Shown: positions 50,965-51,407 of the stretch, one piece after another
How positions within the stretch are numbered: the first letter of the stretch is position 1
Layout of the letters: the number at the start of each line of letters is the position of its first letter
Assembly (NCBI GenBank): GCA_963709875.1
Contig: CAVPYB010000012.1
Coordinates: 545,154 to 609,153 of the forward strand
DNA: 64,000 bases
Reading direction: 5' to 3'
Source of the DNA: an uncultured Chloroflexia bacterium
Lineage (GTDB): Bacteria; Chloroflexota; Anaerolineae; Anaerolineales; UBA4823
Notes under the pieces: model-generated
The model's input: only the letters and a program-made list of their open reading frames with translations
Told to the model about the DNA's origin: nothing
The model's database searches: none
Made by a program: the position numbers and the translations under genes

Positions 50965-51407
50965 CTATGACCTCGGATCCCATACTGGATAGCTTCACCC
51001 CCGAGATCGTCGCCTTTTGCTGCCACTACTGCGCTTATGCGGCAGCCGACCTGGCGGGGTCCATGCGCCTGGACTATCCCACCTCGATCAAAGTGGTCGA
51101 GCTGCCTTGCTCCGGCAAGCTGGATGTCTTATACGTGCTGCGCGCCTTCGAGGACGGTGCCGACGGCGTGATGGTAGCGGGTTGACTGGAGGGCGACTGT
51201 CATTACCTGGAAGGTAATCTCAACGCCCGCAGGCGAGTGGAATATGCAAGGACTTTATTGGAAGCAATTGGGCTGGAAGGGCAGCGCATCCAGATGATCA
51301 ACCTCTCATCGGCCATGGGCGGGCAGTTTGCAGCTTCCGCACAGGAGATATCCGAGCAGATCGCTCAAATAGGGAAAAACCCTTTAGGAAAAAACAATGC
51401 TACCTGA
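50961..51407 (+). CDS. mvhD: MvhD/FlpD-like protein (copy 2) with in-frame UGA at 51183..51185, candidate selenoprotein
   Basis: The frame is identical on both sides of the TGA: ...GADGVMVAG-U-LEGDCHYLEGNLNARRRVEYARTLLEAIGL.... The paralogue has Cys at this position (VISVAC-PIGNCHH). Confidence 0.65.
51192..51227 (+). promoter_or_regulatory. Candidate bacterial SECIS hairpin
   Basis: ggcg-actgtc-attacc-uggaa-ggtaat-ctcaa-cgcc. The apical loop contains GG and starts 22 nt after the UGA. Confidence 0.35.

Follow-up and report, generated by a model that had tools for sequence, protein, structure and literature searches.

The 64,000-nucleotide stretch analysed here (the window) comes from an uncultured Chloroflexia bacterium of the order Anaerolineales and carries two genes for FlpD/MvhD-type [2Fe-2S] adaptor proteins. 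The second of these, mvhD copy 2, is the subject of this work. Its reading frame is crossed by an in-frame UGA codon that is followed by a short hairpin. We propose that this codon is decoded as selenocysteine (Sec) and that the hairpin is a bacterial selenocysteine insertion sequence (SECIS) element.

The mvhD copy 2 gene and its in-frame UGA codon

The mvhD copy 2 gene occupies positions 50967..51407 on the plus strand and comprises 146 codons, including the putative Sec codon, between an ATG start and a TGA terminator (51405..51407). A Shine-Dalgarno ribosome-binding site (GGAGGA, 50956..50961, plus strand), recognised from the sequence, lies 5 nt upstream of the start. Codon 73 (51183..51185) is also TGA, and it falls in the Sec/Cys column of the alignment with the archaeal subunit VhuD. 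The frame reads MTSDP...GADGVMVAG, then TGA, then LEGDCHYLEGN..., and continues for 73 codons beyond the TGA before the terminator is reached. When the TGA is translated as Cys, the read-through product has 146 residues, of which residues 14-136 align with all 123 positions of the PF02662 (FlpD) profile (E = 9e-47; 158.6 bits, cut-off 22.3). Since the profile is matched end to end, a single domain spans the TGA, which agrees with the first-pass annotation of this DNA, where the codon had been placed in frame with MvhD homology continuing behind it. That annotation had also described the gene as free of frameshifts; indeed, mvhD copy 2 contains not a single indel, and the same TGA is found in independent JGI, ENA and GTDB assemblies. 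The public annotation of the gene contains only a 72-residue product, P0121.

All five invariant Cys positions of the family (19, 22, 48, 73 and 78) are present in the window protein, with the putative Sec at position 73. A [2Fe-2S] cluster needs four ligands only, while MvhD has five invariant Cys positions; residue 73, taken for a cluster ligand in the first-pass annotation, is at most a candidate ligand. In the literature, nothing was found on which Cys residues ligate the MvhD cluster.

Codon 73 in homologous genes

Homologues of the mvhD copy 2 product are 80-91% identical to it. In the first protein search, the full-length homologues (80-84% identical) mostly had Cys at column 73, and five had Trp (P0002, P0003, P0004, P0007 and P0009, from loci L001-L005). 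These five Trp-type homologues stem from one ENA and four JGI samples, and in their DNA codon 73 is TGA; translation with table 11 does not yield the products on record, and the Trp is therefore an artefact of TGA translated as Trp. The 50 nt downstream of the TGA are nearly identical in the five contigs. Because the forms on record are wrong, either carrying Trp or ending after 72 residues, a full-length query lists mostly Cys types, and the TGA-type majority remains hidden.

A survey at the DNA level was based on one GTDB genome per species, which yielded 80 loci, mostly from metagenome-assembled genomes of Anaerolineae/Anaerolineales. Five metagenome contigs brought the number of loci to 85, and 80 further metagenome loci were then added, so that the pooled set contains 183 homologous segments from GTDB genomes and metagenomes. 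TGA was found at codon 73 in 55 of the 85 loci, nearly all of them labelled Anaerolineae or Chloroflexota. In the pooled set, column 73 is TGA in 123 of the 183 segments (120 distinct sequences) and Cys in the remaining 60, with no other residue at all, as expected from the Cys/Sec pairing that had been claimed for this position. In-frame TAA or TAG codons are absent from all 183 segments, and the sole other in-frame stop is one TGA in one sequence. On this sequence evidence, the TGA-type mvhD is a lineage-wide trait of Anaerolineae and not a peculiarity of one assembly. Two TGA-type genes with the Anaerolineae hairpin (L025 and L051) come from bins that bear the labels Acidobacteriota and Methanosarcinales; a wider distribution is less probable here than wrong binning of Anaerolineae contigs.

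Two further features of the TGA-type sequences concern translation. First, the terminator is TGA in 74 of 122 TGA-type genes, and in the window both hdrL, the gene preceding mvhD copy 2, and mvhD copy 2 itself end in TGA; since TGA still terminates many of these genes, the genetic code is not reassigned. Second, in the region past the hairpin the identity between TGA-type sequences is 0.75 at codon positions 1 and 2 and 0.41 at position 3. The far stronger conservation of the first two positions indicates that the region downstream of the TGA is translated. This downstream half carries the invariant residues Cys78, His79, Gly83 and Asn84.

Cys78, otherwise invariant, is replaced by Tyr (TAT) in the TGA-type gene of L018 (6001-6408) and by Trp (TGG) in the Cys-type gene of L086 (1226-1657), which lies on a contig of about 3x coverage. 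These replacements could be errors, or Cys78 could be less essential than the other conserved Cys residues. The Trp at Cys78 of the database protein P0008 was considered as a second Sec site and rejected, the codon being a genuine TGG on a low-coverage contig.

A conserved hairpin downstream of the UGA codon

The core of the putative SECIS element (51202..51218, plus strand) is 17 nt long and consists of AUUACC (51202..51207), the apical loop UGGAA (51208..51212) and GGUAAU (51213..51218). Its stem begins 16 nt after the UGA and its loop 22 nt after it, and it overlaps codons His79-Asn84. In the minimum-free-energy (MFE) structure, an extended stem (51191..51228, plus strand) is formed by pairing of GGGCG (51191..51195) with CGCCC (51224..51228). 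Of the hairpin originally described in the first-pass annotation, the core stem-loop is present, conserved and consistent with the bacterial SECIS model, but the lower ggcg/cgcc stem did not hold up: only 76% of its cells are paired across homologues, and the conserved element does not include it.

The published criteria for bacterial SECIS elements (PMC13188914) comprise a loop of 3-9 nt, an upper stem of 4-16 bp, a G in the first two loop positions, a distance from UGA to loop of 16-37 nt and an MFE of -7.5 kcal/mol or lower. The hairpin lies within all of these limits, with a 5-nt loop, a 6-bp stem, a spacing of 22 nt and a fold of -20 kcal/mol in the window sequence.

Among 53 TGA-type sequences, the frequency of the majority base at the third codon positions +20, +23, +26, +29, +32 and +35 relative to the TGA is 1.00, 1.00, 1.00, 0.91, 0.98 and 1.00, respectively, whereas outside the hairpin, both upstream and downstream, it is 0.4-0.7. 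Likewise, pairwise identity at position 3 is 0.96 in the six hairpin codons versus 0.41-0.44 elsewhere. This freezing of synonymous sites is confined to the TGA-type genes and the Cys-type genes most closely related to them. Across 51 distinct sequences, every cell of the 6-bp stem is paired (100%), and full 6/6 pairing is observed in 53 of 53 TGA-type sequences versus 4 of 31 Cys-type sequences. One compensatory change was found, in L081, where the stem reads AUUUCC/GGAAAU (A-U to U-A) through a Tyr-to-Phe replacement combined with a synonymous Gly change. The loop conforms to NG[G/U]NN in all 123 TGA-type sequences and is UGGAA in 106 of them. These patterns show that selection acts strongly on the hairpin as RNA.

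A home-made scan of all loci for an in-frame TGA followed by a hairpin of 6 bp whose loop reads NG[G/T] returned, beyond mvhD, only off-frame and antisense noise. If the hairpin is a bacterial SECIS element, as the conservation patterns suggest, it would bring SelB, loaded with Sec-tRNA(Sec), to a ribosome that has stalled on the UGA.

Cys-type genes that retain the hairpin

All 18 nt of CATTACCTGGAAGGTAAT are kept in six Cys-type sequences, namely in L020, L029 and L128 (which encode the same protein), in L086 and in two genes of L087 (L020:6211, L029:6196, L128:1696, L086:1430, L087:10196 and L087:16865). The nearest neighbour of each is a TGA-type sequence and not another Cys type, which suggests about five independent Sec-to-Cys conversions, each leaving a fossil SECIS element behind. 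Cys-type homologues at a greater distance, found in Deltaproteobacteria and archaea, have lost the hairpin in sequence as well as in pairing. For the L087_16865 gene, either Sec-type relatives exist that the sampling missed, or the hairpin is of some use even where the UGA is absent. Because the synonymous sites are intact in five independent Cys-type lineages, the hairpin could be more than a SECIS element, with a second, UGA-independent role in mvhD mRNAs, for example a programmed pause while the [2Fe-2S] site Cys73-Cys78 is made; we regard this bolder proposal as unlikely. In a more modest version, selenium dependence of the Hdr-MetVF complex, to which mvhD copy 2 appears to belong, may be a general and so far unannotated trait of Anaerolineae.

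Evaluation of the selenocysteine assignment

We assign a probability of roughly 0.88 to the reading in which UGA codon 73 of mvhD copy 2 is decoded as Sec and the gene encodes an MvhD-type [2Fe-2S] electron-transfer adaptor. Several observations weigh against it. The first, which is the chief reason why the probability is not set higher, is that the genes for tRNA-Sec, selA, selB and selD were not found in the window or in 1.1 Mb of related DNA, to which the search extended. ARAGORN predicted no tRNA-Sec in the window, and among the 85 loci it reported three tRNAs, all of them tRNA-Ser and none tRNA-Sec; tblastn with approximate E. coli SelD and SelB queries gave zero matches in the window and all loci (1.1 Mb), a result that is uninformative for the rest of the genomes. 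Other UGA-containing fdh or hdr genes, for which the first-pass annotation had proposed to look, did not turn up in the window or the loci. FdhA of the window is of the Cys type (RLCHAGS, TGC at 39536), the window being the only one among all loci in which an FdhA active site was seen, and the FPxxDC motif of HdrA has Cys in 63 of 63 occurrences and TGA in no locus.

Further points against the assignment concern the hairpin. The window fold of -20 kcal/mol compares with -15.6 +/- 3.1 kcal/mol for shuffled sequences (z = -1.45), which makes it no outlier, and the extended stem contributes to this value; in a 101-nt context the fold is not significant (z = 0.09). By itself, the 20-nt core reaches no more than -5.1 kcal/mol. 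Evidence that the hairpin exceeds chance is hence comparative, not thermodynamic. The Rfam SECIS families were unmatched, both at gathering thresholds over the whole window and at E <= 10 over 51100..51350; lack of a match is expected, given that bacterial SECIS elements are diverse (PMC13188914). Finally, the six Cys-type sequences with an intact hairpin demonstrate that it can persist without the UGA, and one of them, the paralogue L087_16865, differs by 39% in protein sequence from the nearest sampled Sec type.

On the other side, Sec decoding in Chloroflexi has been on record since 2006, and single-cell genomes related to Anaerolineae are reported to encode Sec-containing formate dehydrogenases as well as an hdr-mvhD-metVF cluster.

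Four other explanations were weighed. The one that survives best concerns the hairpin, which may serve something other than, or additional to, Sec insertion, for example mRNA stability or a pause in translation, and would then owe its place behind the UGA partly to coincidence. The Cys-type sequences that keep all 18 nt, including the strongly divergent L087_16865, speak for such a function, but the close relationship of each to a Sec type fits independent and recent Sec-to-Cys conversions with fossil SECIS elements, and the distant Cys types have lost the hairpin. We consider this explanation rather improbable.

Read-through without Sec is slightly less probable. It would involve either a reassigned code, with UGA read as Trp or Gly, or near-cognate insertion of Trp or Cys stimulated by the hairpin. 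The Trp at codon 73 of several database proteins seems to favour it, but these residues are translation artefacts and the underlying DNA is TGA; a reassigned UGA is at odds with the use of TGA as terminator in the majority of these genes and in hdrL and mvhD copy 2 of the window. The other points that favour read-through, namely that Sec machinery was not observed in the window or the fetched loci and that the hairpin persists in Cys-type genes too, are set against the strict pairing with Cys, as in the Sec-containing VhuD, and against the loop, which obeys the SelB-type NG[G/U] rule in 123 of 123 sequences.

A nonsense mutation is very improbable, whether it is taken to leave a pseudogene or a gene split by nature, from which an N-terminal fragment of 72 residues is made. 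Public gene calls do treat the gene in this way, as the 72-residue P0121 on record illustrates, and neighbouring genes look broken in the window assembly. Nevertheless, the stop is always TGA, always in the Cys column and never TAA or TAG; the downstream half retains codon-periodic purifying selection together with its invariant Cys78, His79, Gly83 and Asn84, and the pattern is conserved in more than 100 sequences.

An error in sequencing or assembly (TGC or TGT misread) is effectively refuted, even though the stretch at 38.3-55.2 kb is full of indel errors (in hdrL alone, 24 that are not multiples of three relative to 12 intact orthologues), since the identical TGA recurs in 122 other sequences from independent assemblies, the errors of the window are almost all 1-nt insertions and not substitutions, and mvhD copy 2 has no indel.

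Comparison with known systems

The best matches of the mvhD copy 2 product among solved structures are MvhD/VhuD subunits of Hdr complexes. In chain 9sfi_K, the VhuD of Methanococcus maripaludis, the residue exactly opposite residue 73 is a non-standard one, written X and standing for Sec (vfvagX against vmvagU), and the precedent of Sec-type VhuD/MvhD invoked at the outset is thereby confirmed at the level of the aligned residue. The two proteins belong to the FlpD fold family (E = 2.5e-35) and share the function of a [2Fe-2S] adaptor feeding electrons to HdrA. They differ in that VhuD has a second Sec in its N-terminal CxxU motif, where the window protein has Cys22 (TGC), and in that the archaeal SECIS element is located in the 3' untranslated region and has another structure (PMC13188914), whereas the window hairpin lies within the coding sequence. 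In addition, hydrogenase genes are absent near mvhD copy 2, the neighbours being hdrL, a GNAT gene, metV, metF and hdrCB. The product scores 152 bits with the NCBIfam VhuD model NF045873, below the cut-off of 215; given this score and the lack of hydrogenase genes nearby, it is not VhuD proper.

MvhD/VhuD is listed in a 2026 review as a selenoprotein family with two Sec residues, and hydrogenase-type selenoproteins including MvhD/VhuD are described there as occurring exclusively in sulfate reducers and methanogens. Among bacteria, Desulfobacterium autotrophicum has four Sec-type mvhD genes (mvhD1, 2, 3 and 5) next to hdrA/hdrL. As in the window, bacterial selenoprotein genes directly follow hdrA/hdrL there, including an HdrL with an NADH-binding module; the organism belongs to another phylum. 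The deltaproteobacterial homologues that we retrieved all have Cys at column 73 and lack the hairpin. Another MvhD homologue, BamF of the class II benzoyl-CoA reductase of Geobacter metallireducens, carries Sec19 near its [2Fe-2S] cluster. BamF shares with the window protein the nature of an MvhD-homologous [2Fe-2S] adaptor with Sec near the cluster and the coupling to an HdrA-type bifurcating flavoprotein, but Sec19 is N-terminal and does not correspond to column 73, and BamF is more than 100 residues longer, with extra domains. For both MvhD and BamF, a redox-active Cys or Sec near the cluster that is not a ligand has been described.

With respect to the RNA element, the window hairpin resembles the bSECISearch model and the SECIS of E. 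coli fdhF in being a stem-loop in the coding region just past the UGA, with a small loop that starts 22 nt from the UGA and has G and then G/U early. It differs from the curated SECIS families in showing no sequence resemblance to them and in the shortness of its conserved core, which is weak by itself.

No paper reporting Sec in an Anaerolineae MvhD was found in the literature. Although the family itself is known, a Sec-type MvhD in Anaerolineae and in an HdrL-MetVF cluster does not seem to have been described before. Sec assignment at codon 73 would extend the Sec-type MvhD family to Chloroflexota, beyond sulfate reducers and methanogens, and would connect selenium with the Wood-Ljungdahl pathway, through a complex of the Hdr-MetVF type, in a lineage that is widespread in sediments and digesters. 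The understanding of Sec insertion itself is unchanged. In practical terms, gene callers truncate at the UGA or use code 4 (Trp), and as a consequence a conserved subunit is mis-annotated in more than 100 Anaerolineae genomes and metagenome contigs; the frozen hairpin provides a simple DNA signature for finding such genes. The Cys-type genes that retain the hairpin would in turn be clean examples of fossil SECIS elements.

Gene cluster and likely role

The mvhD copy 2 gene is located in a cluster of electron-transfer and one-carbon genes, several of which are frameshifted in the window. The cluster is preceded by an intact gene for a NuoF-like subunit with flavin mononucleotide (FMN) and [2Fe-2S] (36417..38324). 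After this gene comes fdhA (about 38.3-41.3 kb), in a frameshift-rich interval. The FdhA active site, NNIDHCTRLCHAGSV, is of the Cys type (39536..39538), even though MvhD of this organism apparently contains Sec. The Fe-S and molybdopterin domains of fdhA are separated by an in-frame TAG (39060..39062), which probably marks a gene boundary or one more error of the assembly. Next come hdrA copy 1 (about 42.4-45.6 kb, frameshifted) and mvhD copy 1 (45664..46168, plus strand; FlpD E = 1.9e-39), a paralogue of the Cys type with the Cys codon TGC at 45878. Both the start at 45664 and the Cys of this paralogue had been given correctly in the first-pass annotation, but the frame undergoes a +1 shift directly after the ATG; the true frame is 45668..46168. 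At 45664..45670, ATGACCAAC... reads M and then PTETDTTFEPEI in the +1 frame, which looks like one more single-base insertion. Paralogues of the mvhD copy 1 type have TGC or TGT in all related loci.

The hdrL gene encodes an HdrA-type flavoprotein fused to a NAD(P)H-binding, GltD-like module. It was mapped by tblastn with the intact 1578-residue orthologue of L008, and domains were taken from Pfam searches of the L008 proteins. It extends from about 46200 to 50964 on the plus strand (start approximate), is frameshifted and ends in TGA (50962..50964), leaving a gap of two bases to the mvhD copy 2 start codon. Downstream on the plus strand lie an intact gene for a GNAT acetyltransferase (51397..51963, identified by Pfam) and three genes located by tblastn with L008 proteins, each containing at least one frameshift: metV (DUF5981, about 51989..52670), metF (methylenetetrahydrofolate reductase, about 52714..53707) and an hdrCB fusion (about 53647..55175). 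In L008 and L087, intact genes are arranged in the identical order.

A similar cluster is the HdrCBA-MvhD-MetVF cluster of Moorella thermoacetica and of marine Anaerolineae (DscP3 and An-B22), which shares the HdrA-type gene, mvhD, metV, metF and the HdrC/HdrB fusion. The window differs from the Moorella-type cluster in its HdrL of about 1,550 residues with a GltD-like NAD(P)H module and in the GNAT gene between mvhD and metV. In what the Chloroflexi single-cell paper says on this cluster, selenocysteine is mentioned for formate dehydrogenases only and not for MvhD. Judging from the genes, the complex may be a Moorella-like, Hdr-linked methylene-tetrahydrofolate reductase of the Anaerolineae bacterium. 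The Sec-containing MvhD would work with the adjacent HdrL, relaying electrons between the flavoprotein and its partners. Like its counterpart in the Methanococcus VhuD, residue 73 would be situated at the [2Fe-2S] cluster or adjacent to it.

Frameshifts in neighbouring genes

Genes at 1-38.3 kb and 55.9-64 kb have full-length Pfam matches, and large genes are broken within 38.3-55.2 kb. Comparison of the window hdrL with 12 intact orthologues revealed 26 indel events, 24 of which are not multiples of three; most are single-base insertions, and few fall in homopolymer runs. The fragments of broken genes show identities to L008 similar to those of intact small genes. Moreover, in a short-read (Logan) contig the gene for the identical GNAT protein precedes a metV of 227 residues that is intact. 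Given the 1-nt insertions, the fragment identities, the 12 intact orthologues and the intact metV of the short-read contig, the frameshifts at 38.3-55.2 kb most likely reflect a local failure of assembly or polishing and not pseudogenes; decay of the neighbouring genes was considered and rejected on the same four grounds. As to the cause, our guess is a long-read stretch that was left unpolished.

Other observations in the window

Two features outside the cluster were noted. A full trmD gene is present at 1384..2109 on the minus strand, and a second, partial trmD at 10188..10772 (profile positions 2-78 of 195). Between the two copies lie genes for a PIN-domain protein and a DDE transposase (4267..4890 and 8522..9817), with a low GC content of 0.46 at 4-8 kb, and the region looks like a mobile-element insertion that duplicated the end of its target gene. 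An open reading frame at 55931..57085 combines an N-terminal TIR domain with an FGE-sulfatase (formylglycine-generating-enzyme) domain, an unusual pairing.

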